Origin: Bacteroidaceae bacterium | Lineage (GTDB): Bacteria; Bacteroidota; Bacteroidia; Bacteroidales; Bacteroidaceae | Assembly: GCA_017455585.1 (NCBI GenBank) | Contig: JAFSZU010000028.1 | Span: 3,220-67,219 of the forward strand | Direction: 5' to 3' | DNA length: 64,000 bases | Shown here: in pieces, positions 1,934-39,859 of the stretch | Numbering within the stretch: the first letter of the stretch is position 1 | How the letters are laid out: every line of letters starts with the position of its first letter | Made by a program: the position numbers and the translations under genes | Notes under the pieces: model-generated | The model's database searches: none | What the model was told of the DNA's origin: nothing | The model's input: the letters and a program-made list of their open reading frames with translations, nothing else

Positions 1934-2001
1934 ATTATAAGGTTTTTAGGTTATAAGGTTTTTAGGTTATAAGGTTTATAGGTTATCAGGTTTTTAAGGT
2001 T
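1934..2001. repeat. AT-rich tandem repeat (AGGTTTTTAGGTTATA, ~16 bp x4) overlapping stop of receptor-1
   Basis: attataaggtttttaggttataaggtttttaggttataaggtttataggttatcaggtttttaaggtt. Confidence 0.8.
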
Positions 2002-5000
2002 CCTCGCCGCGGGCTCGTTTCCGTTCGCTCTTGCGCATGGGCTGGCGATTGAGACGCCACACGGCATGGAAGAGGACGTAGCGGGGCGGGACATTGGTGT
2101 ATGTCTCGATGCGGCCTTGGGCGTTGAGGATGTTGGTGGTGCTGCGCAGCTGGCCGAGGATGTCGAAGCCGTCGAGCATCACGACGAGGTTGCCCTTGAA
2201 GAAGGGACGTGCAAGGCGGGCTTTCCACATCCAGTCGGTGGTGTTCATCGAGGCATCGGCATAGCCGCGGCGGGCATAGAGCGTCAGGTCGGTCGAAAGT
2301 TGCAGCTTCCACGGCAGGTTCAGCAGGACGGAGAAGGTGGTCTTGTAGTCGGCCACATGGAAGTCCGTGAAGTCCGTGCGCGGGCTGTGAAGCCACTGCC
2401 ACTTGGGCTCGCAGTCCAGCTTTAGGTTGCCCAGGTCGCCGAGGCTGTACCTGGCAATCAGCAGCGGGCTTAGGGTGGTGGTGCTGACGGTGCTGCGTTG
2501 CAGTTGTGTCGTACCCGTCAGATCTACACTGTGACGGTAGCCAACGGAAGGCACAACGTAGATGCGCAGTCGGCCTCGCTTGTCGAGCGGCAGGTTACCG
2601 ATGCCATAGCCTCCGATGAATTCCCAGTTACCATTGATGCTGTAGGGCTTGTAGGTTCGGACACCTGTCTCGGGGTTGTAAAGCTGGCTCATGACCGTGG
2701 CGTTCTGCGTCAGGACGAAGTCTATGCCGCCCGTAAGCTTTATCTGCTTATTCTTGTAGTTCTTCTGATGATGCACCTGCATGCTGTGGCGGTAGATATT
2801 GTGCAGGTCGGAGTTGCCTTCGGTGATGTTCAGCGGGTCGGTGGCGTCACGGATGTTGACGTAGTTGAGCATCGAGGGGGCGTCGGCCTTCAGGCGATAG
2901 GCGATGAAGAGGGCGTTGCCGTTGTCCCAGCGTCCCTCGGCATAGCTCCAGTCGGTGTCGAGGAGGACGGTGCGGTGCGTGATGAGCGTATCGACCTGTC
3001 CGCGCTGGTAGTGCAATGTGCGGTTGAGCAGACTTATAGGTAGGCGCTGGCTGATGCTCCAACTACCGTTCTTCATCTTGGGGAACCACCAGAGGAAGGG
3101 TCGCAGGGAGTAGTAATGCTCGGTCAGACGGTAGCTGTAGCTGTTGGCGGCGTCCATGGTCCGCTCATACTCGGCCACGGAGGGCAGCACTCCAACATCC
3201 AGTGTGTCCGTGCGCTCCATTCGGTCTAAGAGGAAGAGCGAGGATTCCCGCTGCGTGTTGCGGTATTCGTAGCTGAGGTGGGTTTCCAAGGAGAGGTTGC
3301 GGCGGATGGTCCAATGGTACATGCCCTGTACCCACAACTTGCCATAGCGGTCAGGGTGGTCGCGGAAGTACTGGTCGCCATAAAATGGCGACCCACCTGA
3401 CACTCGCTGGCGGTTGAAGCGGTCGTCGGCTTTCACGTCGTAGCAGGCATCGGTTTCGAATTCGAAGTAGTCGCTGGTGCCGTCCAGCTTGATGGCTGTG
3501 AAGGTCGAGAGGTTGGGATGCAGGGAATAACCGCTCCGCGAACCCTGTTGTTGGTTGGTATTGATGAGGGAGTCGCCGGCATTCCATGCTTGAGACTGGA
3601 AGGACGAACGGTTGTCCCATCGATGATAGTCAAAGCTGGGTCTGATGCGGAGCTGCACCTTCGGGAAGTTATACTGGAACTGGTTCCATGTGCTCACAGA
3701 GAGTGACTTGTCCTCCGCCACCGAGCGGCTATGCTCGCGGGTGTCGCCGCCGGGCAGGTAGTTCACGCGCTCCGTGACGGTTGTCACATCATTCGTCGTG
3801 TGCTCGGCGCGGACATTGCCCTCCAGCTTCCATTTCTTGTCGCGATCCTCAGTGAAATAGTCGATGCCGCCCTGTTGTCGCGTCTGCTGTCCCGGACTCA
3901 CGCCCATCCTGTAGCCACCGCTTTCACCCGGTCGCTCGCCGTCGTTCAGGTTGTTGACATTGAAGTAGGCCGCAAGCCGCGAGTGGTCCGAGAAACGCAT
4001 GGCCAAGAGGCGGGCGAGGTAACGAAGACCCTCTCCCCGCTCCACCTTTAGGGGGAGAGCCTCGATACGCTCTTTTGCTGTGCGCAGCCACTCCTCTCCC
4101 ACACGGGAGGGGTTGGGGGTGGGTCTGCCCATACCTCCTTCCACATTCACCAGCCATCCGATGCTATATTCCCTCTTCAGCTTCACGTCCATCACATACT
4201 GCTTGTCGTTCTCCAACTGCTGTCCGAGGAACTCGCTCTTGTCTCCATACTTGTCATAAATCTCTACCTGCTTCACCGTATAGGCTGGCAGGTTCTCAAG
4301 CATCACGCGGTTGTCACCACGGAAGAAGTCTTTGCCATTGAGCAGCAGGGCCTCCACGCGCTTGCCGTTGACGGTGATTTCGCCACCGTCCTTCAACTCC
4401 ACGCCCGGCAGCTGCTTCACCAGCGCATCGAGCATGGAACCCTCTGCCAACTGGAAGGCATCGGCGTTATAGACCACTGTGTCGCCACGATAGTAGAACA
4501 TCACCTTCGAGGCGGTGACAGTCACTTCACGCATCGTATGACGTACAGTCTTGTGCATCAGGACGGGTGGCAGTTCGCGCACGAACTCCCGTCTGCCCAC
4601 GTTGCTGAGGTTATAATCCACGTAGGTGGTGTCGTGCCCCTCGAAGGATGCCCGCAGGATGTAAGCCTCCTGACGGTGAGGCACTTCGAAATAGAAGTCC
4701 GATGTGTAGCCGCTATGATCCATATTCATCCAAAACGACTTGGCTTCACGTGTACTGAGCACGGTGCTGTCTCGTGTCATCAACGTTACCACAGCCCCTG
4801 GCAGGTCGTTGCGCGTCATGTTGTCTAATACCTTGCCGTGGATGCTCATCATCTCCTTGTCCTGCTTGCGCTGTACAAAAATTTGACGAAGAGCCTTCTT
4901 CACTTTCACCTTCACGGGTAGGCTCTTCGTCAGCCGCTCCACGGCATCAGGAACGTCTTCTTCCGCTACCGACTCCAACGTGACAGCAGCTTCCAATCCC

Positions 5001-5176
5001 AGCAGTTCATCCGTCACGAAAGTGATGGTCCACTCCTCCTGCTGCTCGTTGAGGCGGGCGAGGGCTTGGGAAAGTGAGAGATGACCCTCCCCCGAAAAGG
5101 GAGCGGTTACCTGTGCTGATATGGGGAATAAGGCCACGCACGCGTATATAATAATAAGGTATAGCAGTCGTTTCAT
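1994..5176 (-). CDS. outer-membrane beta-barrel receptor (TonB-dependent-receptor-like, cell-surface-signalling partner of ECF module 1)
   Basis: 1060-aa ORF. Signal peptide MKRLLYLIIIYACVALFPISAQ. N-terminal STN-like segment, then a CarboxypepD_reg-like segment (IHGKVLDNMTRNDLPGAVVTLM). Plug-like VTVTASKVMFYYRGDTVVYNADAFQLAEGSMLDALVKQLPGVEL, followed by a long barrel. It overlaps the anti-sigma gene by 4 bp. Paralogue of 6471-9716. Confidence 0.75.
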   Translation of the reverse strand: MKRLLYLIIIYACVALFPISAQVTAPFSGEGHLSLSQALARLNEQQEEWTITFVTDELLGLEAAVTLESVAEEDVPDAVERLTKSLPVKVKVKKALRQIFVQRKQDKEMMSIHGKVLDNMTRNDLPGAVVTLMTRDSTVLSTREAKSFWMNMDHSGYTSDFYFEVPHRQEAYILRASFEGHDTTYVDYNLSNVGRREFVRELPPVLMHKTVRHTMREVTVTASKVMFYYRGDTVVYNADAFQLAEGSMLDALVKQLPGVELKDGGEITVNGKRVEALLLNGKDFFRGDNRVMLENLPAYTVKQVEIYDKYGDKSEFLGQQLENDKQYVMDVKLKREYSIGWLVNVEGGMGRPTPNPSRVGEEWLRTAKERIEALPLKVERGEGLRYLARLLAMRFSDHSRLAAYFNVNNLNDGERPGESGGYRMGVSPGQQTRQQGGIDYFTEDRDKKWKLEGNVRAEHTTNDVTTVTERVNYLPGGDTREHSRSVAEDKSLSVSTWNQFQYNFPKVQLRIRPSFDYHRWDNRSSFQSQAWNAGDSLINTNQQQGSRSGYSLHPNLSTFTAIKLDGTSDYFEFETDACYDVKADDRFNRQRVSGGSPFYGDQYFRDHPDRYGKLWVQGMYHWTIRRNLSLETHLSYEYRNTQRESSLFLLDRMERTDTLDVGVLPSVAEYERTMDAANSYSYRLTEHYYSLRPFLWWFPKMKNGSWSISQRLPISLLNRTLHYQRGQVDTLITHRTVLLDTDWSYAEGRWDNGNALFIAYRLKADAPSMLNYVNIRDATDPLNITEGNSDLHNIYRHSMQVHHQKNYKNKQIKLTGGIDFVLTQNATVMSQLYNPETGVRTYKPYSINGNWEFIGGYGIGNLPLDKRGRLRIYVVPSVGYRHSVDLTGTTQLQRSTVSTTTLSPLLIARYSLGDLGNLKLDCEPKWQWLHSPRTDFTDFHVADYKTTFSVLLNLPWKLQLSTDLTLYARRGYADASMNTTDWMWKARLARPFFKGNLVVMLDGFDILGQLRSTTNILNAQGRIETYTNVPPRYVLFHAVWRLNRQPMRKSERKRARGEEP
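4026..4126. repeat. GC-rich hairpin element, double-ended copy, inside receptor-1 CDS
   Basis: AGACCCTCTCCCCGCTCCACCTTTAGGGGGAGAG ... TGCGCAGCCACTCCTCTCCCACACGGGAGGGGTTGGGGGTGGGTCT. Inverted AGACCC/GGGTCT termini and two hairpins. Confidence 0.75.
5083..5111. repeat. GC-rich hairpin element (short variant) in receptor-1 N-terminus
   Basis: GACCCTCCCCCGAAAAGGGAGCGGTTACC. Encodes ..APFSGEGH.. just after the signal peptide. Confidence 0.5.
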
Positions 5177-5793
5177 TGCGCGCCTCCTTTCTGCACAAAG
5201 ATGGTATCTCGCAGCTCTGTCAGTTGCAGCCCATCCAGCTCATTGAGGCTTTCGATGAACACTGCCAGGCTGTCCTCTTGGTTCCACTTGGTGTGAATAC
5301 GGAGTCCTTTCAGTTGCTCATTACCGAAGGACACGGCTTTGCCATAATGCTGGCTCACAATCGCCAGCATGGAGTCCAAGCGGACATCGGCAAAAAGGAT
5401 GGGTGTCCCCCGTAGCCCCCCGGCGGGGGGCGCTTGAAGGCTGCCAACCTTTTCATCCTCCGCCGGGGGATTATAGGGGGCCAGGATTTGTATGCTTGCC
5501 CACACCAACCCACCGAGGAAGACGGCAGCGAGGAAGACGGCGGCAATCTTGCGATAGAAGACCCATCCCGCCCTTCGGGCACCTCTCCCGTGATAGAGGG
5601 GAGTGGCTGCGCACAGTTTCTCCCCATTGATGACTTCCTCCTTCACCAGCATCAGGATAGCATGGCGGTCGGTGGCGAGTTCGTCGGTGCAGTCATCGGC
5701 GAGGAGGTAGCTGACGAGGCGGCGCTCTTCATCGGCCGTCGTCTCGCCGCGGAAGAAACGGTCGCGGAGTATCAAGGCATCATTCTCTTTCAT
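5173..5793 (-). CDS. anti-sigma factor (single TM, FecR_C/DUF4974-like periplasmic domain), module 1
   Basis: Lies between the ECF sigma and receptor genes. TM helix IAAVFLAAVFLGGLVWASIQIL. C-terminal FADVRLDSMLAIVSQHYGKAVSF..IHTKWNQEDSLAVFIESLNELDGLQL resembles the FecR C-terminal domain. Confidence 0.65.
   Translation of the reverse strand: MKENDALILRDRFFRGETTADEERRLVSYLLADDCTDELATDRHAILMLVKEEVINGEKLCAATPLYHGRGARRAGWVFYRKIAAVFLAAVFLGGLVWASIQILAPYNPPAEDEKVGSLQAPPAGGLRGTPILFADVRLDSMLAIVSQHYGKAVSFGNEQLKGLRIHTKWNQEDSLAVFIESLNELDGLQLTELRDTIFVQKGGAQ
5559..5616. repeat. GC-rich hairpin element inside anti-sigma-1 CDS
   Basis: AGACCCATCCCGCCCTTCGGGCACCTCTCCCGTGATAGAGGGGAGTGGCTGCGCACAG. Confidence 0.75.
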
Positions 5794-5805: not shown

Positions 5806-6315
5806 TTAAGGATTGTCTGGATGTTCATGGAAATAGGAACGTAGTTGCTGGCGGGCGCGGGTGAGGATGGAGCGTGTGTTGGCAGGCGTCTCGCCCAGGA
5901 CGAGGGCGATGTCACGGGTCGTCATGTCGTCGAAGTACTGCATCGTGATGGCACTGCGTGCCTTGGGCTTCAGCGTGGCGAGTGCGAGGCGCAAGCGGCG
6001 CAGGTCGGCGTGCAGCTGTTCGCGCAGTTCCGTGTCCAGCTCGTCGGAGAGGCCATAGACCTCGCTTTCCTCAAGAGATACTGTTTCAGGGTGGCGGCTG
6101 CGCAACAGGTTCAGGCAGTGGTTCCTCAACGTCAGCAGGAAGAAACCCTCGGGCGACACCATGTCATCCAGCCGCTCACCTTGTCGCCACAGTCGCAGGA
6201 AAGTCTCCTGCACGGCGTCCTCGGCCTCCTGCCAATTGCCCAGCAGTGCCAGCGCCGTGCGCATTAGTCGCGTCCGCAGCGGCCAGTATTGTCGTTCAAA
6301 TTCGAGTTGGTTCAT
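5806..6315 (-). CDS. ECF (sigma-70 family) RNA polymerase sigma factor, module 1
   Basis: 169 aa. Region 2 EDAVQETFLRLWRQ..FFLLTLRNHCLNLLR. Region 4 HTH MTTRDIALVLGETPANTRSILTRARQQLR. Confidence 0.85.
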   Translation of the reverse strand: MNQLEFERQYWPLRTRLMRTALALLGNWQEAEDAVQETFLRLWRQGERLDDMVSPEGFFLLTLRNHCLNLLRSRHPETVSLEESEVYGLSDELDTELREQLHADLRRLRLALATLKPKARSAITMQYFDDMTTRDIALVLGETPANTRSILTRARQQLRSYFHEHPDNP

Positions 6316-6383
6316 TGTCTTGTTGTGATGCGTCTCTATTTATAGAACACATGAACCCCAGAAATGTTGCAAGAAGGATGTAG

Positions 6384-6470: not shown

Positions 6471-9400
6471 TTATCTTTTCTTCGGGTTCTTGTTGAAGTG
6501 CCAGACGGCGTGGAGCATGACGTAGTGGGGGAGGGAGCGGTACCAGGTGACGGTGCGGCCCTGGGCATTGATGCTGTAGTCGATGGGCGACAGCTGGTGC
6601 AGGAGGTCGAAGGCCTGGAGACTGAGGATGAACCTGCCCTTTGCCAGGGACTGGCTGAGGGAGGCGTTGACAACGAAGTTGTTTCGGTTGAGGTCGGCTG
6701 TGCCGTAGCCGCGACGGCTGAACATGGTGCCGTCGGCGGCGAGGGTGAGGCCTCCGAACCTGGTGCCCCAGAGGGCGGGTGTGGTGTAGGTGGCTTCGAG
6801 TCCGTACTGGAAGTCGAGGGCGGAAAGGGAAGACCCACCCCCTGCCCCTCCCGTGAGGGAGGGGAGTGGCTGCGCAGAGTGCCGCCAGTTGATTGACCCC
6901 ACAGCGCGGACGTTCAAGGTCTTGCGGTTGTAGCGGATGTTCGCTCCGCTGTTGAGACCGAGGGTATTCACGGTGTTGACACTGCTCTCGTTTTCGCCCT
7001 CCAGCAAGGCGTGGTCCTTGGAATGATTCCAGTCTGCACCTGCGTCGAGATGCCACGTCCAGTAGCGCTTCTCGCCGATGGTGCGGTTGGTGCCGAAGTT
7101 GGCGCGGGCGGCGTAGGCGCCGCTGATGTTCATGGGTTTGTAGGTGCTGATGCCGGTGGCGGGGTCGTAGGTCAGGGACTGTGCGATGTCGCGATGGTGG
7201 TAGTCGAAGGAGGCAGAGAGGTTGTAGGAGTCGTTTCGCGGCCCGGTGCTGTCATAGTATCTGATGTTGAAGGTCGTCTTTGCCGTGGGTTTCAGGTCGG
7301 GGTTGCCCAGCTTGACGATGAGGGGCTGGCTGTCGTCGCGGAAGGTGATGCGGTCCAGCAGGAGGGTGCGCTCCTGGCTGAAGCCGACATTGAAGTTGAG
7401 GTCTCGCCGCCCGCCTTTCCACACGTTGCGATAGCGGAACGTGGCTTTAGGCAGGAACACGGTCTGGCGTGCCAGCGTGTCCAGCGTGCCGCGGTGGTAG
7501 TGGAGGCGTTCGCCGGACAGCGGCGTGCCCACCTCCAGCGCAAACCGCTGGTAGCTGATTTTGGCGTGGAACTGCGGATGCACATAGTAGGCGTTCTTGT
7601 AGAACATGAGACCCACGTCGTTGCTCCAGTCGCGGTCGCGGCTGTCATAGGAGTTCGCGGCATCGGTGATGGCGGTCAGGGCGTCAAGCTGCGAGGGGAG
7701 GAGGGGGGACAGGGAGGTGTCCTCGGCGGGAAAACCGCCGAGCACCAACGCATCGGGCTGTGAAGGACTGCCGGGCACCAACGGGGAGGTACCTTCGGGA
7801 GCGCTCGGCTTTGCCGCTTCGCTTTGCGAAGAACCCTCGGGAACGGTAACGGGGTGGTAGAGGTAGTCGCGGTTGTGCTGGCGGCGGCTGAAGAACCCGT
7901 CGCTGATGCCTATGCGCAGGGCGTTGGGCAGTTCCCATTGGTATCCCATGCGGCCGAGAAACCATGTGCTGCGGTTGAAGAGCGTGTTGGAGTTGTGGGT
8001 GGCTCCCCCATTCTCCTCCGAGGGGGTGGCCGTTCTTGTTTCATACCTTGTCGCACGCTCGCTCTCGTCGTTGCTGTGTTCAAAGTGGAAGAAGTATTCT
8101 AAATGCTTCTTGTCCTTGCCCACATTGAAGGATCCCTGAACATCGAATATAGCATTCCACGCCCGCCCCTCGCTGACGCCCACGGTGCGCTGGCTGACGG
8201 TGAGGCTGTCGCTCCACTGGTCGAAGGCGGAGTTGAACGAGCCGTCGCGACTGGCGTAGCTGTAACGGGCCAGGGAGTAGAGATAGAAGGGCTTGGACAG
8301 CGACAGCGTGTTGTTCAGGCTGAGCCTGCGGTTGCCCGCGCGGTTGAAGGACTCGGTGACGGACGTGGGTGTGCAGCCGTCGATGAACTGTTCGCGGCGC
8401 TGCTGCACGGTCTGCTCGTCGGTCGAAGAGGTGTAATCAGCGCTGAATGTCTCCTTCAGTTTGTCGCCCTTGGTCTGGTAGTTGAGTTCTCCGGCCACGC
8501 TGCGCGTCGTCAGCAGCGATCGCGGCTGGCGCGCCGGGTTCCACTGGTCGGACTGCCCGATATGGCGACCCTCGTTGACGTTATTCGCGTTGGCCAGGAG
8601 CGTGAAGCGCAGACGGTCGGTGAAGCCGAGGAGGAAGCCACGGGCAAGCCACCGCTCCTGAGTGCCTCCTGCCGCTTCTACATTGCCGATGTAGCCTTGG
8701 CTGTATTCGTCCTTCAGGTTCACGTCCATCACATAGCGGCGCGGCTCCACGTCGTAGCCCAGTGCCACGCTCTTGTCGGTCTGCTTCTCATAGACCTTCA
8801 GGTTCTTCACGGTGTAGTACGGCAGGTTCTCCAACAGCACCTTCTTGTTGCCGCCGAAGAACGAGCGGGAGCCGAGCAGCAGCTCATCCACCTTGCGCCC
8901 GTTGACGAATATCTCGCCGTCGACGTTCATGGTCACGCCCGGCAGCTGGCGGATGAGGTCGTCGAGCATGGAGCCGTCGGGCAGCCGGAAGGCCGTGGCG
9001 TCGTAGATGAGCGTGTCGCCGCGGTAGAACATCTTGATCTTGGTGGCCGTGACGGTCACCTCACGCATGGTCTTGGTCGTACCGCGGCGCATCTTCAATG
9101 TGGGCACTTCCACACCGTCCTCAGGCAAGGGACGGGGGATGGTCACCCGTTGCCACACGTCGTCGTAGCCCTCCTGGCTGGCGCGGACGAGGTACTGCGA
9201 CTCGGCGGCACTCACTTCGGCGTTGAACTGTGCCCGAACCATCTTCATACCGCTTCCGTAGAAGACAACGATTTGTGCGGAATCCACCACCACGCTGCTG
9301 TCCGCGCGCAGGATGGAAACCTTTGCATAGGGCAGCGGCATCTCCAGGAAACCGTCCTCCACACAGCCTGAGAGGTGCACCGTCTTGCCTGTGAGGTCTC

Positions 9401-9716
9401 GTTCAGGCTTGTACTGTACAAAGATCTGCTTGCCCCTCGTCTTCACCTTCACGGGCTGTCCCTTGCATACCCGCGCCACCGCCTTGTCGGCTCTGAGATT
9501 CTTGGACGGCCGTGCCGAGACGCGCAGGTGTTCCAGATTGTTGTGGATGAAGTGGATGGCGTATTCTGTCTGCGCTGTTGCCAAAGAGTCAAGGGCAGTG
9601 GCGAGGGAAGACTCTTCCCCCGCCCTCCCTTGTAGGGAGGGAGAGGTTACTTGTGCGGATAGGGGAAATAACGCTGTCGCAAGGACATATATAATAAGGT
9701 ATAACCGTTTCATCAC
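6471..9716 (-). CDS. outer-membrane beta-barrel receptor (TonB-dependent-receptor-like), module 2
   Basis: 1081-aa paralogue of 1994-5176 with the same layout: signal peptide MMKRLYLIIYVLATALFPLSAQ and plug-like VTVTATKIKMFYRGDTLIYDATAFRLPDGSMLDDLIRQLPGVTM. Confidence 0.75.
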   Translation of the reverse strand: MMKRLYLIIYVLATALFPLSAQVTSPSLQGRAGEESSLATALDSLATAQTEYAIHFIHNNLEHLRVSARPSKNLRADKAVARVCKGQPVKVKTRGKQIFVQYKPERDLTGKTVHLSGCVEDGFLEMPLPYAKVSILRADSSVVVDSAQIVVFYGSGMKMVRAQFNAEVSAAESQYLVRASQEGYDDVWQRVTIPRPLPEDGVEVPTLKMRRGTTKTMREVTVTATKIKMFYRGDTLIYDATAFRLPDGSMLDDLIRQLPGVTMNVDGEIFVNGRKVDELLLGSRSFFGGNKKVLLENLPYYTVKNLKVYEKQTDKSVALGYDVEPRRYVMDVNLKDEYSQGYIGNVEAAGGTQERWLARGFLLGFTDRLRFTLLANANNVNEGRHIGQSDQWNPARQPRSLLTTRSVAGELNYQTKGDKLKETFSADYTSSTDEQTVQQRREQFIDGCTPTSVTESFNRAGNRRLSLNNTLSLSKPFYLYSLARYSYASRDGSFNSAFDQWSDSLTVSQRTVGVSEGRAWNAIFDVQGSFNVGKDKKHLEYFFHFEHSNDESERATRYETRTATPSEENGGATHNSNTLFNRSTWFLGRMGYQWELPNALRIGISDGFFSRRQHNRDYLYHPVTVPEGSSQSEAAKPSAPEGTSPLVPGSPSQPDALVLGGFPAEDTSLSPLLPSQLDALTAITDAANSYDSRDRDWSNDVGLMFYKNAYYVHPQFHAKISYQRFALEVGTPLSGERLHYHRGTLDTLARQTVFLPKATFRYRNVWKGGRRDLNFNVGFSQERTLLLDRITFRDDSQPLIVKLGNPDLKPTAKTTFNIRYYDSTGPRNDSYNLSASFDYHHRDIAQSLTYDPATGISTYKPMNISGAYAARANFGTNRTIGEKRYWTWHLDAGADWNHSKDHALLEGENESSVNTVNTLGLNSGANIRYNRKTLNVRAVGSINWRHSAQPLPSLTGGAGGGSSLSALDFQYGLEATYTTPALWGTRFGGLTLAADGTMFSRRGYGTADLNRNNFVVNASLSQSLAKGRFILSLQAFDLLHQLSPIDYSINAQGRTVTWYRSLPHYVMLHAVWHFNKNPKKR
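6831..6878. repeat. GC-rich hairpin element inside receptor-2 CDS
   Basis: AGACCCACCCCCTGCCCCTCCCGTGAGGGAGGGGAGTGGCTGCGCAG. This is a near-consensus copy. Confidence 0.8.
7719..7750. repeat. CGG hairpin type 1 in receptor-2 CDS
   Basis: GTCCTCGGCGGGAAAACCGCCGAGCACCAACG. Confidence 0.65.
7828..7854. repeat. PEG box (encodes PVTVPEGS) in receptor-2 CDS
   Basis: GAAGAACCCTCGGGAACGGTAACGGGG. Confidence 0.7.
9609..9650. repeat. GC-rich hairpin element in receptor-2 N-terminus
   Basis: AGACTCTTCCCCCGCCCTCCCTTGTAGGGAGGGAGAGGTTAC. Confidence 0.65.
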
Positions 9717-11074: not shown

Positions 11075-12307
11075 TTATGAGCGTGACGCAAGGTCTTCGA
11101 GAATCTTCCAGACGTTGAGGAGGCCGCGGGGGACGTGGAAGCAGCCTTTCCACTTGCCGCCCTTGAGGGGCAGGAGAACTTCGCCCTGGCGGTTGAGATA
11201 ACCATACCATTCGGGATAGTCGGGGTCGCGGAAATGGGTCCAGGTGTAGTCGTGAACGCGCTGGAACCAATCGAGACAGCGCTGGTCGCCCGTGAGTTGA
11301 TAGCCCTTGATGAGGGAGATGAGGGTCTCGAGGTGCACCCACCAGAGCTTCTGGTCCCATTCGAGTTCATGGCGCGGGTGGCCGAGTCGGTCCATGAAGT
11401 AGAAGATGCCGCCGAACTCCTTGTCCCAACCGTATTCGACTTCCTGCAGACAGATATCGACCGCTTTCTGGATGAGCTCGGGACGGTTGAGACGCTTGCC
11501 CAGGTCCATGACGAACCACATGGCCTCGATGGCGTGGCCGGGATTGAGCTTGCGACCGTCGAAGCAATCGACGAGGTTGCCGTCCTTGCCCAGGGCTTCC
11601 ACGATGAGACCGAGTTCAGGACGATAGAAGACATCCAAGACCTCGTGCAGGCAGTCGTCGATGGCTTTCTGCAGGAAGGCGGGGTCGAGGAGGGATTCTA
11701 TCTCCAATGAGACATTGCAGAGGATCATGGGGAGGTCGAAGGTCTTTAGGGCACGGGCACCAGGTGAGGCTTTTGACCATTTGCCCTTGGGGTTATCGAC
11801 CTTGGAGAGAACGATGTCGAAGGTGCGACGGGCAATGGAAGCGTACTCGGTGGAGAGCTCAGCGGCGGGGAAACCGCCGCATACCAATGAGGGCGAAGCT
11901 TTGGCGGCAGTGGCGAGGGCAATGCTCAATTGTCCGAAGGCGATGGTGGCGAAGGTGTAGGAGAAGATGTTGTAGGGCTCCACGAGGGGATGGCCTTCAC
12001 GGTCGAGGGCAAAGTACCAGTTGAGGTTGCCGTCGTGACCGTGCTTCTTCAGGAACTCGGCACCCTGAACAGCGGCATCGAGCCATTCCTGACGGGGCTC
12101 CACGGTGTTGTAGAGTTTGGAAAACATCCATACCTCGCGGCCTTGCAGCCAGATGAACTTGTCGGTGTCATAAACTGAGCCGTCTCGGTCGAGGCAGGTG
12201 AAATAGCCGCCAAATTCGGTGTCCTGGGACTTATTGAGCCAGAAGGGAACAACCCTATCAAGTAATTCAGAGCGATATTGCTCCGCCAATTGTTTGAAAT
12301 CTATCAT
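11075..12307 (-). CDS. N-acylglucosamine 2-epimerase (AGE / renin-binding-protein family)
   Basis: VPFWLNKSQDTEFGGYFTCLDRDGSVYDTDKFIWLQGREVWMFSKLY and WWVHLETLISLIKGY are typical AGE-family blocks. It sits beside nanA and a sialate transporter. Confidence 0.8.
   Translation of the reverse strand: MIDFKQLAEQYRSELLDRVVPFWLNKSQDTEFGGYFTCLDRDGSVYDTDKFIWLQGREVWMFSKLYNTVEPRQEWLDAAVQGAEFLKKHGHDGNLNWYFALDREGHPLVEPYNIFSYTFATIAFGQLSIALATAAKASPSLVCGGFPAAELSTEYASIARRTFDIVLSKVDNPKGKWSKASPGARALKTFDLPMILCNVSLEIESLLDPAFLQKAIDDCLHEVLDVFYRPELGLIVEALGKDGNLVDCFDGRKLNPGHAIEAMWFVMDLGKRLNRPELIQKAVDICLQEVEYGWDKEFGGIFYFMDRLGHPRHELEWDQKLWWVHLETLISLIKGYQLTGDQRCLDWFQRVHDYTWTHFRDPDYPEWYGYLNRQGEVLLPLKGGKWKGCFHVPRGLLNVWKILEDLASRS
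11857..11889. repeat. CGG hairpin type 1 in AGE epimerase CDS
   Basis: GCTCAGCGGCGGGGAAACCGCCGCATACCAATG. Encodes ..VCGGFPAAELS.. Confidence 0.6.
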
Positions 12308-12324: not shown

Positions 12325-15216
12325 TTATTCTTTAGGAAGGGTTTTCCACGTGAGTCCGGGTTGCTCCTTGTCTTGCGGGATGAAGATGCTGAGGATGAGG
12401 GCAACGAGGACGCTGACGAGCATGGAGACGAAACCGAAGAGGAGGAAGTTGGCCTGGGTGCAGAAGTTCATATAGAAGACGGTGGCTGTGCCGCAGAGGA
12501 AACCGATGAGGGCGGCACGGGAACCGATGCGTGGGAAGAAGATGCCCATGAGGAAGAGGCCGCCGATGGCACCGCTGAGGAGACCGAGGATGGTGTTGAA
12601 GTAGTCGAGGAGCGACTGGATGTCCACGGTGGCCATCAACCAGGCGATGGCCATGCCGATGAGACCGGCACAGATACCGGCGATGCGGGCGGTGCGGACG
12701 GAGGAGGTGGAACCCTCGGGAACAGTGACAGGACGGCGGAGGGTTGTCCACTTCGACCATAAATCTACGGTAAAGGCGGTGGAGATAGAGTTGATGTTGG
12801 AGGCGATGGTGGACATCGTGGCGGCGAAGACGGCGGCGATGAGGAGACCGGCGAGTCCTGCGGGCAACTGGCTCATCATGAAGAAGGGGAAGATGGCATC
12901 GCCCTTGGCCATCGTGATGTCCAGCTCGGCGGGATGGGTTTTGAAGAAGGTGTAGAGACCTGTGCCGATGGTGAAGAAGGCGATGGTGACGATAACGGAC
13001 ATGAGGCCGTTGGTCAGGATGCCGCGGGCGGCACTCTTCTCGTCGGAGGTGGTCAGGTAGCGCTGGATGACGGTCTGGTCGCTGGTGTAGGAGATAAGGT
13101 TATTGGCCAGACCACCGAGGATGACCACCCACCACGTGGCATTGACGAAGTCGAAGGGATTTTCCGAATTGAAAAGGAAAAGGCGGAACTTGTCGTGATC
13201 GGTGGCTATCTGCCAGAAGTCCGAAGCACCATTGTCGCCTGTATTGACAATGAGATAGACGGCAGCCAAGATGGCACCGCCCACAAGGATAATTCCCTGA
13301 ATGACATCGCCCCAGACGACCGCTTCCACACCACCCATCGTACAGTAAAGGATGGTGATGAGAGCCATCAAGGCTATACAAATATAGATATTGATACCCG
13401 TAACAGCTGTCATCGCCAAGGACGGAAGGAAGAGCACGAGGGCTGTGCGCGCCACCATGAAGACGATGAAGAGGATGCTGGCCATGAGGCGCGTGGCGCT
13501 GTTGAAGCGGCGTTCCAGATATTCATAGGCGGTGGTCACGTTCAGGCGACGGAAGAAGGGCAAATAATATTTGATGACGGGGAAGGACACCAGCAGGATG
13601 CAGATCTGCATGGGGTAGTAAGTCCAGTCGGTGGCGTAGGCCTTGGCGGGGATACTCATATAGGTAATGGCAGAAAGCATGGTGGCGAAGATGCTGATGC
13701 CAGCCGCCCACCAGGGGATGCGGCCGCCGCCCTTGAAGAAGTCTTCAGAAGAATTCGAGGCGCGCTTCATGAAGTAGTAGCCCAGATAGACCATGCCTAA
13801 CAGGTAGAGGATGAGCACTGTCCAGTTCAACCAGCCGAAGTGGGCGGTGTAGGTGATATCCACGCGGGTGACATCGGAAGAGCGGACACCGGGTTTCTCC
13901 TCGCCGTTGATAACGAGGAGGGAGACGGCGGACGAACCGCCGCCCACAGAGCCCAAGGCAGACGATGGCATGGGCACCAGGCCAGCACCGGCACGGGCGA
14001 TGAGGGGGCTGTCAAAGACCTCGGCCCACGAATCGGTGACGGTATGATAGACAAGAATGCTGCGGCGGAACTGGTACCAGGCGGGTTGCTGGGTCATGTA
14101 ATAGTGCATTTCCTCGCGGAGGTTGGCCAGACGCTCTGCGGTCTGGGTGGTGTCTGAGAGGAGGGCTCCGCGCTGGAGAGCGCCTTCAAAGATGCGCTTG
14201 TTCACACCGCCGAAGCAGAGGATATGGGCGGCACCGGAGGGGATGGCAGAGGCACCGACCAAAGACCCCTCATCTCCCCGTAAGGGGAGACTTTCGTTTC
14301 CACTCGTCTTCACTGCGCAGCCACTCCCATCCCTTACGGGAGGAGTTTGGGGGTGGGTCTTTATCAGACTTGTCGCCAACCAATCTCCTTTCCTTGGGTC
14401 ATAATAAACACCGTTGGTGACAGCTTTCCCATAGCGAGGGTCATAGCCGCCGAGGAGGTAGAAGTTGCTGCCGATAGCGCCTTTCTGCACGGCTGCGGCA
14501 GGTTGCACGCGGGCAGGGCCTGGCATATCGGGCAGCTCTTCCCAGGCAGCTCCTGTCTGTGTGTCGAACCAGGCAGAGGGTAGCGGCCATTTCAGGCGGA
14601 AGGCCTTGTGGTTGGCTACTCCATTGTGCAGACCACCAGCGATATAGATAAAGCCATCACCGTAGGCGGCAGCGAAGTTGTCGAGAGAAACAGGCAATGA
14701 TGGCAAATCCCGGCTAATGGCCTCGCCACTCGTTCCAAGGGTCAGGAGAACTGCAAAGTCCTCGCTCTTCTTACCGTCTGCCGTGCCGCCCAAACAGACA
14801 ACACCCTCGGACGTGGTGACGCTGGCACCGTAGGCTAACGCACAAGGCAGGGAGCCGGCACGCCACCAATAAGTGTCAGAATCTGAAAGGCTTATTGCAT
14901 AAATGTCTGTGTAGAAGACCTTTTGGCCACCCTCAGATGCTGGGATGTCTGGGAAGTTGCAGCCACCAGCCACCAAAACACGGTTGAAAGGCATCAAGAA
15001 ATCTTTTGGAACAAACCCAGCAAAGGAACCACTCACGCCCTGACCGCCAAATGCAGAGAGAGCCGGGACGGGAGTGAAGGAAGCGTTGTTGAAGCGGTGG
15101 GAAGACCTGCCCCCCTGCCCCTCCCTTGTAGGGAGAGGAGTAGAATCATTTGCAAATGAGAAACTTGATAGGAGAATCGCCAAAGCGAAAAGAGACATGA
15201 TTTTTTTCATAATCAC
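12325..15216 (-). CDS. fusion protein: N-terminal Kelch-type cyclically-permuted mutarotase (NanM-like) + C-terminal sodium:solute symporter (SSS family)
   Basis: 963 aa. Residues ~1-450 carry signal-peptide and Kelch-like blocks (VLVAGGCNFPD.., FIYIAGG, FYLLGGY, ILCFGGV). Residues ~455-963 are polytopic SSS-like (FFKGGGRIPWWAAGISIFATMLSAITYMSIPAKAY). Confidence 0.75.
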   Translation of the reverse strand: MIMKKIMSLFALAILLSSFSFANDSTPLPTREGQGGRSSHRFNNASFTPVPALSAFGGQGVSGSFAGFVPKDFLMPFNRVLVAGGCNFPDIPASEGGQKVFYTDIYAISLSDSDTYWWRAGSLPCALAYGASVTTSEGVVCLGGTADGKKSEDFAVLLTLGTSGEAISRDLPSLPVSLDNFAAAYGDGFIYIAGGLHNGVANHKAFRLKWPLPSAWFDTQTGAAWEELPDMPGPARVQPAAAVQKGAIGSNFYLLGGYDPRYGKAVTNGVYYDPRKGDWLATSLIKTHPQTPPVRDGSGCAVKTSGNESLPLRGDEGSLVGASAIPSGAAHILCFGGVNKRIFEGALQRGALLSDTTQTAERLANLREEMHYYMTQQPAWYQFRRSILVYHTVTDSWAEVFDSPLIARAGAGLVPMPSSALGSVGGGSSAVSLLVINGEEKPGVRSSDVTRVDITYTAHFGWLNWTVLILYLLGMVYLGYYFMKRASNSSEDFFKGGGRIPWWAAGISIFATMLSAITYMSIPAKAYATDWTYYPMQICILLVSFPVIKYYLPFFRRLNVTTAYEYLERRFNSATRLMASILFIVFMVARTALVLFLPSLAMTAVTGINIYICIALMALITILYCTMGGVEAVVWGDVIQGIILVGGAILAAVYLIVNTGDNGASDFWQIATDHDKFRLFLFNSENPFDFVNATWWVVILGGLANNLISYTSDQTVIQRYLTTSDEKSAARGILTNGLMSVIVTIAFFTIGTGLYTFFKTHPAELDITMAKGDAIFPFFMMSQLPAGLAGLLIAAVFAATMSTIASNINSISTAFTVDLWSKWTTLRRPVTVPEGSTSSVRTARIAGICAGLIGMAIAWLMATVDIQSLLDYFNTILGLLSGAIGGLFLMGIFFPRIGSRAALIGFLCGTATVFYMNFCTQANFLLFGFVSMLVSVLVALILSIFIPQDKEQPGLTWKTLPKE
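12709..12732. repeat. PEG box in SSS-transporter CDS
   Basis: GGAACCCTCGGGAACAGTGACAGG. Encodes RPVTVPEGST. Confidence 0.7.
14263..14360. repeat. GC-rich hairpin element, double-ended copy, inside NanM::SSS CDS
   Basis: AGACCCCTCATCTCCCCGTAAGGGGAGA ... CTGCGCAGCCACTCCCATCCCTTACGGGAGGAGTTTGGGGGTGGGTCT. Confidence 0.8.
15103..15143. repeat. GC-rich hairpin element in NanM::SSS N-terminus
   Basis: AGACCTGCCCCCCTGCCCCTCCCTTGTAGGGAGAGGAGTAG. Confidence 0.7.
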
Positions 15217-23175: not shown

Positions 23176-23285
23176 ACGTCCGCACGAAAGCATTATCACG
23201 TGCGGACGTATAAGCAAAAACGTGCGCACGAAAAGGCAGGAACGTGCGCACGATATTTTCATCACGGGTGCACTACCCGTTTTCA
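23176..23285. repeat. 22-bp phased tandem array (5 units) abutting stop codon of porin-like gene
   Basis: ACGTSCGNACG cores start at 23176, 23198, 23220, 23242 and 23264, an exact 22-bp spacing. Confidence 0.8.
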
Positions 23286-26949: not shown

Positions 26950-26960
26950 AATCTTAATAC

Positions 26961-27057: not shown

Positions 27058-27059
27058 AT

Positions 27060-31967: not shown

Positions 31968-32012
31968 TGGGTTTTGGTTTTATTCCTGGAGGGAATTAAT
32001 TGGGGATTGATT

Positions 32013-32038: not shown

Positions 32039-32041
32039 TAA

Positions 32042-36340: not shown

Positions 36341-36501
36341 AGACCCACTCCCAACCCCTCCCGTGAGGGGAGGGGAGAGTTTGCAGTTAATATAGAAAAA
36401 TGAACTAAAAGATTATTAACCCTATAATATGACCCAGTAACTTCTCAACTCTCAAGCGCCAGTCGCGCCCCTCCCTCACGGGAGGGGTTGGGGGTGGGTC
36501 T
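36341..36501. mobile_element. MITE-like intergenic element: two inverted GC-rich hairpin modules flanking ~80 bp AT-rich core
   Basis: Left module AGACCCACTCCCAACCCCTCCCGTGAGGGGAGGGGAGAGTTTGCAG (36341-36386). Right module GCGCCCCTCCCTCACGGGAGGGGTTGGGGGTGGGTCT (36465-36501). It starts 1 nt after the stop of 34859-36340 and ends 8 nt before ATG 36509. Confidence 0.75.
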
Positions 36502-37351: not shown

Positions 37352-39859
37352 CTATTTCAGCCAGCGGGCGAGCCAGTTGAAGTAGGTGCGCTGCCAGAGG
37401 ATGCCGTTCTGGGGATGGAGCACCCAGTGGTTCTCGTCGGGATAGAGGAGCAACTCGGCTTCGATGCCTCTCATGCGTGCGGCGTTGAAGGCGCTCATGC
37501 CCTGGGTGGCGTTGATGCGGTAGTCCTTTTCGCCGTGGATGCAGAGAATGGGGGTGTCCCACTGGTCAACAAAGCGGTGAGGAGAGTTCTCATAGGTTCT
37601 CCTGGCGTTGGCTGTCATGTCCTTGTTCCAGTAGGCATCGTCATATTCCCAGTTACTGAACCAGTTCTCCTCGGTCTCTGTATACATGGCTTCGAGGTTG
37701 AAGGCGCCGTCGTGAGCGATGAAGCACTTGAAACGCTTGTCATGGTGACCGGCAAGGTAATAGACGCTGAAGCCGCCAAAGCTGGCTCCCACGGCACCCA
37801 GACGGTCACGGTCCACGTATGGGAGGGAGTCGCACGCATCATCGATGGCACTGAGGTAGTCCTTCATGCACTGGCCTGTCCAGTCGCCGGAGATTTCCTC
37901 CAGCCACTCCTGCCCGAAGCCGGGGAGGCCGCGGCGGTTGGGGGCAATGATGACGTAGCCCTGTGAGGCCATGATGTCGAAGGTCCAGCGGTAGCTCCCG
38001 AACTGTGAGACGGGTGACTGGGGGCCGCCTTCGCAGAAGAGCAGGGTGGGGTATTTCTTCGATGGGTCGAAGTGGGGGGGCTTGATGACCCAGTAGAGGA
38101 GCTGCTGGCCATCGGTGGTGGGGCACCAGCGGGGCTCGGAGGTGCCGGGGGCGAGTTGGGAAAGGATGTGGTCGTTCTCGGCGGTGAGGCGGGTGATTTC
38201 TGCAACGGCGGTGCCGTTGCCTGCGCCAAGAGAAGAAGCAGCATTGGAGGCTGTGGTAGTGGGAACGGTAACCAGATAGAGGTCGGCGGGATGGAAGAAG
38301 TCGTGACGCTCCATGAGGAGGGTGGCGCCAGCCTTCTCCCCTCCATCACGGGCGGGGTCGGGGGTGGGTCTTGGGATGAGTTGCAAATTGCCCCAGTCGG
38401 CCTGGTCATTGGTGAGCTGTGTGACTTCGCCCTTCAGGTTGGTGCGGTAGAGATTGACGGTGGCGTGCCAGACACCTATATAATATAAGGTATAGCTGTC
38501 ATCGTCCCATACGAAGTCGTCAACGTTGCTGTCAAAGGACTCGGTGACATATACTTTGGCGTTCTCTATTGGCTCATTGGCGAGCTGCTGCAGGTCATAG
38601 ACGCAGAGACGCTGGCGGTCTGCCTCGTAGCCGTCACGCTTCATAGAGAGCCAGGCCACGTAGCGGCCATCGGGCGAGAACTTGGGGTTCTGGTCGTAGC
38701 CCACATTGCAGCCCTTCAAATCCTGGGCCTGGTTGATGTACTGGTTTTTGAGAGACTTGGTGGGATTGCAGGAGTTATCAGGACTGCCGACGAATCCTCC
38801 ATCGGGTACAACGTCAAACTCACAACCGTTCTTGCAGAGGTTCCTGGTCTTGTTCATGTCGCCGCTCTCCACATCAAAGAGGAAGATGTCGGAGTCGGTG
38901 CTGATGCTGTAGTCAATCCCGGTCTTGCAGCGGCAGGTGAAAGCGATGAACTTGCTGTCGGGGCTCCAAGCGAGCTGCTCGATGCCGCCGAAAGGTTCCA
39001 TGGGACATTCATAAGGCTCACCTTCGAGGATGTCGAACTCCTTACCCGTGGCCAGGTCAAGGACGAAGGGATGCGGGATGCTCTCGACATAGTGATCCCA
39101 GTGTCGGTACATGAGGTCTGTGATGACGCGGCCAGTGCTCTTGGGCAGGTCGGCGGGGCGCTCCTGGATGATGTCGTGGAAAGGCACGGACTTGATAATG
39201 ATGACCTTTTTCTGGTCGGGTGAGAAGAGGAAACCATCTACGCTGCCGCCGGTCTTGGTGAGTTGCTTGCGGGACTTGCCTTTTGCGGTCATGGTCCAGA
39301 TGTCGCCTTTGAGGTTGAAGGCGATGCGGTTGTTGTCCAGCCAGACAGGGTCGCTGCCGAGACCGAGGAAGGTGGGGGATGTTTCCGCGCTAATAAGCGC
39401 GGCACCCGACCCTGCGGCGGTTGAGGATGCAGGAGATCCTGCGGCGGCTGGGGAGGCAGGGCTTGTTTCAGGCTCGGCGGCGGTTGAGGATGCAGGAGAC
39501 CCTGCGGCGGTTGAGGAGGTTGTTCCCCGTTCTGCGGCGGCTGAGGAGGCAGGAATATCCAGACAGTAGAGGAGGGTGTTGCTGCGGTCTTCGGGGACGC
39601 TGTAATAGGTGACCTGATAGGCGACTTTGGAGCCGTCGGGGGAAACGGCGTAGGAGCCGATGCGTCCCATGGCCCAGAGGGCTTCGGGCGTGAGGGTGTC
39701 GCTCTGGAGCTGGATGTTGCTGCGCGTGATGACGGGCTTCTGTTCTTTCTGGCAGGCGGTCATGATGGCGATGATGAGGAGGAGGAGGAAAAGCCTCACC
39801 CCCGCCCCCTCTCCGAGTGAAGAGGGGAATAGATGGTTGTGGATAAAGGAATGTTTCAT
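37352..39859 (-). CDS. S9-family serine peptidase (beta-propeller + alpha/beta-hydrolase)
   Basis: Lipobox IMTAC. Nucleophile elbow GASFGGFSV. C-terminal ..IHGEKDYRI..HWV catalytic Asp/His region. N-terminal WD40-like propeller. Confidence 0.75.
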   Translation of the reverse strand: MKHSFIHNHLFPSSLGEGAGVRLFLLLLIIAIMTACQKEQKPVITRSNIQLQSDTLTPEALWAMGRIGSYAVSPDGSKVAYQVTYYSVPEDRSNTLLYCLDIPASSAAAERGTTSSTAAGSPASSTAAEPETSPASPAAAGSPASSTAAGSGAALISAETSPTFLGLGSDPVWLDNNRIAFNLKGDIWTMTAKGKSRKQLTKTGGSVDGFLFSPDQKKVIIIKSVPFHDIIQERPADLPKSTGRVITDLMYRHWDHYVESIPHPFVLDLATGKEFDILEGEPYECPMEPFGGIEQLAWSPDSKFIAFTCRCKTGIDYSISTDSDIFLFDVESGDMNKTRNLCKNGCEFDVVPDGGFVGSPDNSCNPTKSLKNQYINQAQDLKGCNVGYDQNPKFSPDGRYVAWLSMKRDGYEADRQRLCVYDLQQLANEPIENAKVYVTESFDSNVDDFVWDDDSYTLYYIGVWHATVNLYRTNLKGEVTQLTNDQADWGNLQLIPRPTPDPARDGGEKAGATLLMERHDFFHPADLYLVTVPTTTASNAASSLGAGNGTAVAEITRLTAENDHILSQLAPGTSEPRWCPTTDGQQLLYWVIKPPHFDPSKKYPTLLFCEGGPQSPVSQFGSYRWTFDIMASQGYVIIAPNRRGLPGFGQEWLEEISGDWTGQCMKDYLSAIDDACDSLPYVDRDRLGAVGASFGGFSVYYLAGHHDKRFKCFIAHDGAFNLEAMYTETEENWFSNWEYDDAYWNKDMTANARRTYENSPHRFVDQWDTPILCIHGEKDYRINATQGMSAFNAARMRGIEAELLLYPDENHWVLHPQNGILWQRTYFNWLARWLK
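38331..38371. repeat. GC-rich hairpin element inside S9 peptidase CDS
   Basis: GCCTTCTCCCCTCCATCACGGGCGGGGTCGGGGGTGGGTCT. Confidence 0.7.
39383..39411. repeat. CGCG hairpin box inside S9 peptidase CDS
   Basis: TTCCGCGCTAATAAGCGCGGCACCCGACC. Confidence 0.55.
39411..39565. repeat. in-frame 27-33-bp tandem repeats (CTGCGGCGGYTGAGGAGGCAGGA) in S9 peptidase CDS
   Basis: Five units encoding an A/S/T/P-rich tract (..STAAGSPASSTAAEPETSPASPAAAGSPASSTAAGSG..). Confidence 0.75.
39792..39832. repeat. GC-rich hairpin element in S9 peptidase signal-peptide region
   Basis: AGCCTCACCCCCGCCCCCTCTCCGAGTGAAGAGGGGAATAG. Confidence 0.65.

Follow-up and report, generated by a model that had tools for sequence, protein, structure and literature searches.

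We analysed a 64-kb stretch of DNA from a Bacteroidaceae bacterium (contig JAFSZU010000028.1), which is called the window below; all coordinates are positions in it. Receptor 1, a gene for an outer-membrane protein of the TonB-dependent-receptor type, harbours in its reading frame a 101-nt double-ended element at 4026-4126, and the window also holds a paralogue of this gene. We found that the element is an insertion into receptor 1, and sequence comparisons showed that its ends are the ends of longer elements encoding a DUF559 endonuclease. Throughout the text, L-numbers designate comparison DNA loci and P-numbers designate proteins homologous to receptor 1; nearly all comparison sequences are metagenome-assembled genomes (MAGs) or metagenome contigs.

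An inserted double-ended element in receptor 1

The element starts with AGACCC (4026-4031) and finishes with GGGTCT (4121-4126), the inverted termini that a sequence-only reading of this DNA had pointed out. That reading had also quoted the translation of receptor 1 as ..NVEGGMG-RPTPNPSRVGEEWLRTAKERIEALPLKVERGEG-LRYLARL.. and that of the paralogue at 6471-9716 as ..NVEAAGGTQERWLARGF.., both of which proved exact on re-translation, and its estimate of about 33 amino acids agrees with the inserted residues 351-383 (nt 4028-4126). The two internal hairpins that it had proposed could be located at 4040-4057 (CTCCACC-TTTA-GGGGGAG, with CTCTCCCC/GGGGAGAG as an alternative pairing) and at 4093-4112 (loop ACAC). 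The segment as a whole folds only modestly better than shuffled sequences (DNA z = -1.97, RNA z = -2.11); the intergenic copy at 36341-36501, a very strong inverted repeat, folds much better (z = -11.4). In the coding orientation of the host gene, the long end (AGACCCACCCCCAA + hairpin) is followed by a spacer and by the short end (hairpin + GGGGAGAGGGTCT). The long end matches a hidden Markov model (HMM) of the family unit with 48.2 bits (E = 4.8e-14). The short end is degraded relative to its counterpart in L007 (CTCCCCC-GTTA-GGGGGAG) and is similar to the ends of CTCCCCC type that DUF559 elements have in L084 and L133-L141. In addition, the 22-mer GGGAGGGGTTGGGGGTGGGTCT occurs 5 times in the window at three mismatches or fewer, against 0.00 expected occurrences.

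When receptor 1 was compared with its paralogue by BLASTP, the gap fell at the element site. We then aligned 31 sequences, comprising the homologues of receptor 1 and the paralogue, with identity down to 45%. The segment is present in just three proteins, namely receptor 1 itself, P0001 (99% identical) and P0002 (87%); the 27 other orthologues, all distant ones included, and the paralogue are without it, and most homologues read GGG-T[ADE][DE]-RYLARLF at this site. The claim that the segment was inserted and is not ancestral coding sequence, already made from the sequence alone, is borne out by the place of the gap in both comparisons, and neither a gap elsewhere nor a majority of filled orthologues was found. 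As an empty reference the paralogue holds in part: it is empty at the aligned site, but the same unit is present elsewhere in it. The segment is also a copy of a dispersed element found in unrelated genes, and hence an insertion. This insertion accounts for the 31-43 residues by which receptor 1 exceeds most orthologues in length.

In a codon-level DNA alignment of filled alleles (L007, L003/L004) and empty alleles (L001, L005, L006), the element spans exactly AGACCC...GGGTCT. The filled alleles are longer than the closest 'TAD' alleles by a net 93 nt, since the 101-nt element stands in place of about 9 nt (the T-A-D codons); the loop of the empty L001 allele reads GGAGGAGGA-ACTGCCGAC-CGCTAT. 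A target-site duplication, which the sequence-only reading had raised as a possibility, was not found, as no direct repeat surrounds 4026-4126 (plus-strand flanks ..GGTAACGA on the left and GCCCATAC.. on the right). Direct repeats are likewise missing around the other doublets of the family, whose flanks show just a T/G, C/T and T base bias.

Receptor 1 scores 31.7 bits against the Pfam family PF14905, above the cut-off of 27. All top matches of its AlphaFold model in a Foldseek search of the PDB are TonB-dependent transporters (E ~1e-9), with low TM-scores because the global model is mediocre (predicted TM-score, pTM, 0.59). In this model, residues 351-384 form a coil with a predicted local distance difference test (pLDDT) score below 50 between strands 340-350 and 385-395, and the insertion site is placed in the turn between two predicted barrel strands. 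Strand counting puts this turn on the side of the long loops 410-428, 650-679 and 766-793, presumably the extracellular one, the membrane side being judged from loop-length parity alone. From the orthologous sequences, this loop is a tolerated hot spot for inserts. At least four insert types occur in it among orthologues, with other inserts in P0003, P0018 and P0020. Some orthologues carry PTIGHNDDANDNA or longer acidic inserts, and in P0018 the site is occupied by a double-hairpin element of another kind, AAGCCCCTTCCCAA-CCTCCCCC-AAG-GGGGAGG ... TCTTCCCC-TCTG-GGGGAAGA-TAGAAGGGGGCTT.

The element has also been exchanged between alleles, as judged from their mosaic sequences. P0002 (filled) is identical to P0003/P0006 (alternative loop) except in defined segments. 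The DNA of L003 (filled) is 100% identical to that of L006 (alternative loop) for ~1020 nt upstream of the element; the two diverge from 28 nt before it to ~170 nt after it, and are then identical again. This mosaic identity indicates that the element moves between alleles on a recombination or co-conversion tract of ~350 nt, a divergent tract around the element in otherwise identical alleles being what co-conversion of flanks would give. A neighbour-joining tree intended to date the insertion was unreliable because the alleles are mosaic; the window and P0002 copies of the element differ by ~10%, like their flanks. The window and L007 alleles differ at 23 of 3183 positions, 11 of them clustered in a patch at 4247-4298, and are otherwise ~99.8% identical in the receptor gene. 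Five of the substitutions lie inside the 101-nt element (4044, 4047, 4065, 4073 and 4101). Four of these are G:C to T:A and all five leave the family consensus and weaken the hairpins, which suggests either mutation hot spots at G-runs and hairpins, possibly through oxidative damage, or assembly errors in GC-rich hairpins.

Regarding the neighbourhood, the receptor 1 gene lies downstream of an extracytoplasmic function (ECF) sigma factor gene (5806-6315) and an anti-sigma gene (5173-5793). Both were identified by synteny with annotated orthologous loci, in which the receptor gene follows an ECF sigma factor gene and, in some cases, also a FecR-like anti-sigma gene.

A dispersed family of hairpin-plus-tail units

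The family unit is ~47 nt long and consists of CTGCGC(C)AGCC.CTCC, the hairpin CCCCTCCC-TCAC-GGGAGGGG and the tail TTGGGGGTGGGTCT. An HMM built from the window copies detected eight clear units in the window. Six of them are inside open reading frames (ORFs), at 4081-4126, 5581-5613, 6831-6876, 14314-14360, 15111-15144 and 38328-38371, and the remaining two form the doublet at 36341-36501. The architecture of this 161-nt intergenic copy, which contains stop codons in all six frames, is indeed that of 4026-4126, as had been noticed from the sequence alone: both are tail-out pairs of one unit. The solo unit of the paralogue stands where the L005 orthologue has EGQMRDF. The features of the window are collected in Table 1.

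Table 1. Receptor genes, element and related repeat copies in the window
Feature	Position	Strand	Description
Host gene, receptor 1	1994..5176	-	1060 aa, TonB-dependent-receptor-like outer-membrane protein, PF14905 OMP_b-brl_3
Double-ended element	4026..4126	-	101 nt, in frame, residues 351-383 + part of codon 384
Long end, type 1 unit	4078..4126	+	CTGTGCGCAGCCACTCC + hairpin TCTCCC-ACAC-GGGAGG(GG) + tail TTGGGGGTGGGTCT
Non-palindromic spacer	4058..4077	+	AGCCTCGATACGCTCTTTTG; conserved where the subfamily has copies in unrelated genes
Short end, type 2 unit, reverse orientation	4026..4057	+	AGACCCTCTCCCCG + hairpin CTCCACC-TTTA-GGGGGAG
Paralogue	6471..9716	-	Empty at aligned site, own repeat insertions elsewhere
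Solo type 1 unit	6831..6879	-	In frame in paralogue (SAQPLPSLTGGAGGGSS); coding-strand orientation opposite to 4078-4126
Degenerate unit of paralogue	9606-9644 / near 9618-9648		Near N-terminus (SPSLQGRAGEESS)
Truncated unit	5581..5616	-	In frame, poorly conserved variable N-terminal part of anti-sigma-like ORF 5173-5793
Second full doublet, same family	14264..14360	-	In frame (different frame, peptide THPQTPPVRDGSGCAVKTSGNESLPLRGDEGS) in 963-aa ORF 12325-15216
Degenerate unit	15111..15144	-	Near N-terminus of ORF 12325-15216 (TPLPTREGQGGRSS)
Intergenic doublet	36341..36501	.	Two type 1 units tail-out around AT-rich ~75-nt spacer
Solo unit	38328..38371	+	In frame in 835-aa ORF 37352-39859 (RPTPDPARDGGEKAG)

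The family extends well beyond the window. The exact 22-mer of the type 1 unit was found in more than 118 reference genome stretches, mostly rumen and gut MAGs of Prevotellaceae/'Bacteroidaceae', and recurs in MAGs of Novosphingobium, Chloroflexota and Singulisphaera (L012, L016, L021 and others). In ~1 Mb of related loci we counted 257 unit matches, adjacent units being tail-out in 60 of ~70 pairs and 20-100 nt apart. Although they occupy unrelated genes in different MAGs, full doublets of the subfamily represented in receptor 1 share 74-96% identity from end to end, including the spacer, which indicates that the doublet of ~101-105 nt spread as one unit. Most full doublets of these loci lie in frame inside ORFs of 500-1270 aa. 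Their hosts, named from translated sequences and not from Pfam, include Mfd, UvrA, carbamoyl-phosphate synthase (CarAB), a glycoside hydrolase family 2 (GH2) enzyme, a GTPase similar to release factor 3 (RF3), TldD-like proteins and other receptors. Short doublets leave four of the six frames open, two per orientation.

Several further observations were made on these units. In a manual tally, asymmetric in-gene doublets had the type 1 end first on the coding strand at ~9/10 independent sites. Stop codons do not account for this bias, because two frames are open either way; descent from co-oriented in-frame DUF559 elements is one explanation, and a strand-specific insertion mechanism is another. 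One or two additional copies of a 15-nt tail (G[TC][TC]GGGGGTGGGTCT) come after many of the units, L011 contains a tandem array of four to five 38-nt units at 6064-6380 (TCTCCCCTCCCTCCACGGGAGGGGTTGGGGGTGGGTCT), and T-rich sequence follows many intergenic copies. The L001 orthologue of ORF 5173-5793 has other hairpin-derived peptides in its N-terminal region. Near the N-terminus of ORF 37352-39859 there is a degenerate unit at 39788-39823 (SSLGEGAGVRLF), and the same ORF has a 63-nt tandem duplication at 39414-39546 that encodes an Ala/Ser/Pro-rich segment.

The window also contains repeats of other kinds. A second hairpin family (D9, ..CGGCGGG-GAAA-CCGCCG..) is present at 7716-7750, 11855-11889, 32009-32043, 39880-39914 and 41659-41693. 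At least one of these five copies, that at 7716-7750, is in frame in the paralogue (ALVLGGFPAEDT). This paralogue has at 7683-7853 a composite insert of ~48 aa (PVTVPEGSS...ALVLGGFPAEDTSLSP) made of other hairpin families and absent from L005. A third motif, encoding PVT[VI]PEG, is found in three genes (12688-12732, 7824-7853 and ORF 15296-16243). Finally, some arrays are unrelated to the element, namely an 8-nt tandem array of ~15 copies of ACTTGTCA at 26935-27078, another 8-nt tandem array just downstream of receptor 1 at 1935-1996, and 22-nt arrays with ACGTGCG at 45345-45497, 56752-56838 and 23197-23271.

DUF559 endonuclease genes between the same ends

At two loci, a DUF559 gene is placed between two units (L110 5963-6462 and L084 2065-2550; Pfam DUF559 E = 5.8e-34). 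Such full-length elements are ~0.5 kb long and their ORFs encode ~110-130 aa. The ends of the intergenic doublet at 36341-36501 match those of DUF559 elements at 93-97% over 34-43 nt; beyond the ends, just weak similarity was found, with no clear remnant of a DUF559 ORF in its spacer. The order of the ends in L084, with type 1 on the left and the CTCCCCC type 2 on the right, is that of the window element in the coding direction of the receptor. The window copy at 4026-4126 has no ORF of its own.

We also collected 80 metagenomic loci encoding relatives of the DUF559 protein, 67 of which had enough flank for repeat scoring. A flanking inverted-repeat score of at least 18 was obtained at 45 of the 67 DUF559 loci and at none of 67 shifted controls (median 20 vs 7). 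Nearly all printed flanks consist of a C-rich tail and hairpin upstream and a hairpin and G-rich tail downstream. The stems vary among loci (CCCCTCCC, CTCCCCC, CCCTCTCC, CCTCCCCC and others), while in 33 of 43 cases an element has matching ends. Moreover, an HMM derived from the window units alone gave tail-out matches on both sides of 22 of the 80 DUF559 ORFs. Between inverted unit pairs we saw host genes or DUF559 and no obvious Y1 transposase, although no Y1_Tnp profile search was made. Outside Bacteroidota, GC-rich hairpin-plus-tail units of lineage-specific sequence likewise bracket the DUF559 genes that plasmids or chromids carry in Synechocystis, Pseudanabaena, Deinococcus, Sphingomonas and Azospirillum (L208-L212). 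On the Synechocystis plasmid CP101716, the DUF559 gene has an ORF on one side and the BREX gene pglX on the other, and it may represent an insertion into pglX.

Homologues of the DUF559 ORF include 3HRL (E = 6e-17) and the catalytic domain of I-Bth0305I (3R3P, E = 3e-4). DUF559 is a Vsr-like member of the PD-(D/E)xK nuclease superfamily, related to the I-Bth0305I homing endonuclease, and has conserved residues in an (I/V)EVDG..H motif.

DUF559 elements are also nested in essential genes. At 18 of the 67 loci the reading frame runs through the element with at least 80 host residues on each side, whereas other DUF559 elements are free-standing between genes. Nested copies confirmed with Pfam were found in leucyl-tRNA synthetase (LeuRS), between the catalytic part and the editing domain (L143, L144, L146, L162 and L183), in isoleucyl-tRNA synthetase (IleRS; L191), in an SF1 helicase between AAA_11 and AAA_12 (L148), and in an enzyme of the CCA-adding/poly(A)-polymerase type (L171). 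In these nested loci the DUF559 domain is complete and has hairpin ends; they contain no Hint domain and no intron and are read through in frame. In LeuRS, the proportion of nonsynonymous differences (pN) is 0.19-0.34 for the nested DUF559 and 0.13-0.31 for the host flanks, a comparison made with pN and its synonymous counterpart (pS) and not with dN/dS, as synonymous sites are saturated. These values indicate purifying selection like that of the host, with a long co-inheritance.

Proposed mechanism, rival explanations and known systems

Taking these data together, we consider it likely that 4026-4126 is a non-autonomous copy, similar to the miniature transposable elements with inverted repeats known as MITEs, of a hairpin-ended family with DUF559-bearing full-length relatives, that it is translated as a tolerated loop, that it relies on a nuclease provided in trans, and that it has spread among alleles by recombination. 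Each element end is a GC-rich hairpin of 7-8 bp plus a G-rich tail ending in GGGTCT, with the two units facing outward. The window copy most likely represents a gene-less derivative that lost, or never had, the DUF559 gene. Breaks or nicks at or near the hairpin ends, by which the ends may be copied to new sites in trans, would come from the DUF559 nuclease that full-length copies encode elsewhere in the genome or the population. Once in a gene, the element could pass among its alleles through homologous recombination or through homing-like repair that co-converts the flanks. Within receptor 1 it would be translated as a disordered loop rich in Pro, Gly and Glu, tolerated and probably on the extracellular side. 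More generally, hairpin ends may be tolerated in proteins since they encode Pro/Gly-rich linkers.

Several points weigh against this reading. There is no DUF559 gene in the 64-kb window, so that the trans-acting source is assumed, and just two DUF559 ORFs were found in ~1 Mb of loci picked for carrying the unit. A clear flanking inverted repeat is absent at 22 of the 67 DUF559 loci, and the Sphingomonas DUF559 gene sits between two complete doublets and not within one. The insertion shows no target-site duplication and apparently replaced ~9 nt, the nearest empty alleles are too distant to fix its exact junction, and the fold z-scores of the window copy are weak. Moreover, the DUF559 copies in LeuRS have diverged like their host and look vertically inherited or domesticated, unlike active homing elements. 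Nuclease activity, cleavage and mobilization by DUF559 are putative.

The main rival explanation, which we regard as unlikely, is that the doublet resembles repetitive extragenic palindromic (REP) sequences or REP doublets forming hairpins (REPINs), and is moved by an unlinked enzyme such as a REP-associated tyrosine transposase (RAYT) or an IS200-type Y1 enzyme acting on single-stranded hairpins, with DUF559 as a secondary invader or passenger that homes into doublet middles. The hairpin-plus-tail units, tail-out doublets, solos and tandem arrays as in L011 recall REPs, bacterial interspersed mosaic elements (BIMEs) and REPINs, and the missing target-site duplication suits single-strand HUH transposition. 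Both the Sphingomonas arrangement and the scarcity of DUF559 ORFs among unit-bearing loci count in favour of this explanation as well. However, the units have no GTAG or CGTC tag, the elements are mostly intragenic, unlike REPs, and no Y1 transposase was seen between unit pairs in a search that was not systematic. Moreover, the ends on either side of one DUF559 gene vary together over very different stems and phyla, and for this reason a late arrival of DUF559 as a passenger is hard to explain.

Retention of the element for a benefit to the host seems improbable to us. According to this explanation, which is compatible with a selfish origin, a variable disordered receptor loop would help to evade phage, colicins or immunity, with the hairpins fostering recombination among alleles. 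The variety of inserts in the same loop, the different double-hairpin element at the same site in P0018, the mosaic alleles with an exchanged tract centred on the loop, and the extracellular site suggested by parity with the long loops of the model are all in line with it. Nevertheless, surface variation is irrelevant in the cytoplasmic UvrA, Mfd, RF3-like and CarAB proteins that also harbour the element, and the window copy is losing the family consensus through decay. Even less credible is a structured signal acting in cis and selected where it stands, such as a terminator or attenuator, an RNA-processing site or a G-quadruplex. The four G-runs in GGGAGGGGTTGGGGGTGGG of the element, the T-rich sequence after many intergenic copies and the hairpins kept by matched changes across the family would fit such a signal, whereas the Rfam search of the whole window at gathering thresholds gave no match, the fold z-score is only about -2, stem-breaking changes have accumulated in the window copy, and copies in coding sequences occur in both orientations and several frames. 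The notion of an ancestral coding segment that most orthologues and the paralogue have lost by deletion, for which one may cite the old age of the insert in the lineage of the window and P0002 copies (as far apart as their flanks) and the G-P-T with which some orthologue loops begin, like the element, is effectively refuted by the absence of the segment from 27 of 30 homologues, with all distant ones and the paralogue among those lacking it, and by its being a copy of a dispersed repeat from unrelated genes.

Concerning known systems, the element works like the Rickettsia palindromic elements (RPEs), reportedly described by Ogata et al. in 2000, if judged by analogy: it is a multi-copy hairpin repeat, in frame in an intact ORF and absent from orthologues. 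In both cases, palindromic dispersed repeats of ~100-150 bp are in frame in many genes, housekeeping ones included, are absent from orthologues, and are translated as extra surface segments. Unlike RPEs, the family described here occurs in Bacteroidota, has a defined architecture of hairpin plus G-rich tail arranged as tail-out doublets, and has full-length versions carrying a DUF559 endonuclease. To our knowledge, no enzyme has been tied to RPEs. From phylum and composition, homology with RPEs was judged unlikely, and the likeness is one of behaviour (for context on RPEs, see PMC1779305, PMC3733652).

The family shares with REPs, BIMEs and REPINs (PMC3733652, PMC6006769) the short GC-rich imperfect palindromes, the occurrence as singlets, inverted doublets and arrays, and the lack of target-site duplications. 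The defining mark of REPs and REPINs is a GTAG or CGTC tetranucleotide that is conserved on one side of the palindrome, at its end (PMC3733652), and REPs are predominantly extragenic, being found only occasionally inside genes (PMC3733652, PMC6006769). Membership of this class was rejected, as our units end in GGGTCT or related G-rich tails, with a variable 5' side and no such tag, and copies are mostly intragenic (6 of the 8 clear window copies are in ORFs). In contrast to REP/RAYT systems, the conserved tail is 3' of the hairpin and the linked gene encodes a PD-(D/E)xK Vsr-like nuclease and not an HUH Y1 transposase.

On the other hand, bacterial MITEs (Correia/NEMIS, ERIC, RUP and Nezha; PMC10969869, PMC3184786) are, like the window family, gene-less elements of ~100-170 bp with terminal inverted repeats that seem to derive from a longer gene-bearing element and to spread as a unit. 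The window element has terminal inverted repeats and falls in the range of 70-300 bp for gene-less elements of this kind. However, the ends of the window family are themselves hairpins. A MITE of the DDE type was discarded, given the lack of a target-site duplication and the presence of DUF559 instead of a transposase in the longer elements with the same ends.

The Vsr-like (EDxHD) nucleases represented by I-Bth0305I and the 'fractured gene' endonucleases (PMC3239194, PMC2677866, PMC3384342) have a catalytic domain homologous to the DUF559 ORF. Their relatives reside at conserved sites of essential genes, and the exchanged tract in the receptor alleles resembles co-conversion. In contrast to these homing elements, the DUF559 copies involve no intron, intein or gene split, since the nuclease domain and the ends are read through, and their ORFs lack a NUMOD-type DNA-binding domain; known homing elements have nothing that corresponds to the hairpin ends. 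A classical homing element was accordingly set aside for the nested copies, which are without intron or intein, and for the window copy, which itself encodes no nuclease. Another parallel is the MobA/gene 60 element of phage T4 (bioRxiv 10.1101/2022.08.31.505936), in which an endonuclease element in a host ORF carries sequences that limit harm and the nuclease is often lost while the remnant stays. The gene is split by the T4 element, which relies on translational bypass, whereas the window family keeps the frame open and no bypass signals are evident.

In-frame invasion of the RPE-like or MITE-like kind is thus already known. In the literature that could be searched, subscription-only sources excluded, we found no description of the repeat family in Bacteroidales, of the link between DUF559 and hairpin ends, or of DUF559 in aminoacyl-tRNA synthetases. 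We propose, more tentatively than the account given for the window copy, that hairpin-ended DUF559 elements are mobile DNA that crosses phyla and colonizes coding genes without intron, intein or split. Their ends would double as flexible Pro/Gly-rich linker ORFs, so that the nuclease domain and the ~100-bp derivatives might be tolerated in LeuRS, IleRS, UvrA and receptors, and the Vsr-like nuclease would move or copy the ends.

The full-length relatives in frame in essential genes suggest a way for mobile DNA to live in coding sequence. If the link with DUF559 holds, it would provide a candidate enzyme and a parent element for the GC-rich hairpin repeats that litter Bacteroidales genomes, and likewise for repeats with other stems in cyanobacteria, Deinococcus and alphaproteobacteria, together with a candidate function for the DUF559 family, whose proteins are very common. 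The persistence of an endonuclease gene and of its remnants in essential genes would then follow a route apart from introns, inteins and gene splitting, which bears on the origin of new protein loops and domains. At the same time, such insertions would give rise in MAGs to small ORFs that are spurious, to gaps in alignments, and to hot spots of assembly or mutation. In gut and rumen Prevotellaceae, they would enlarge and diversify the surface loops of outer-membrane receptors.

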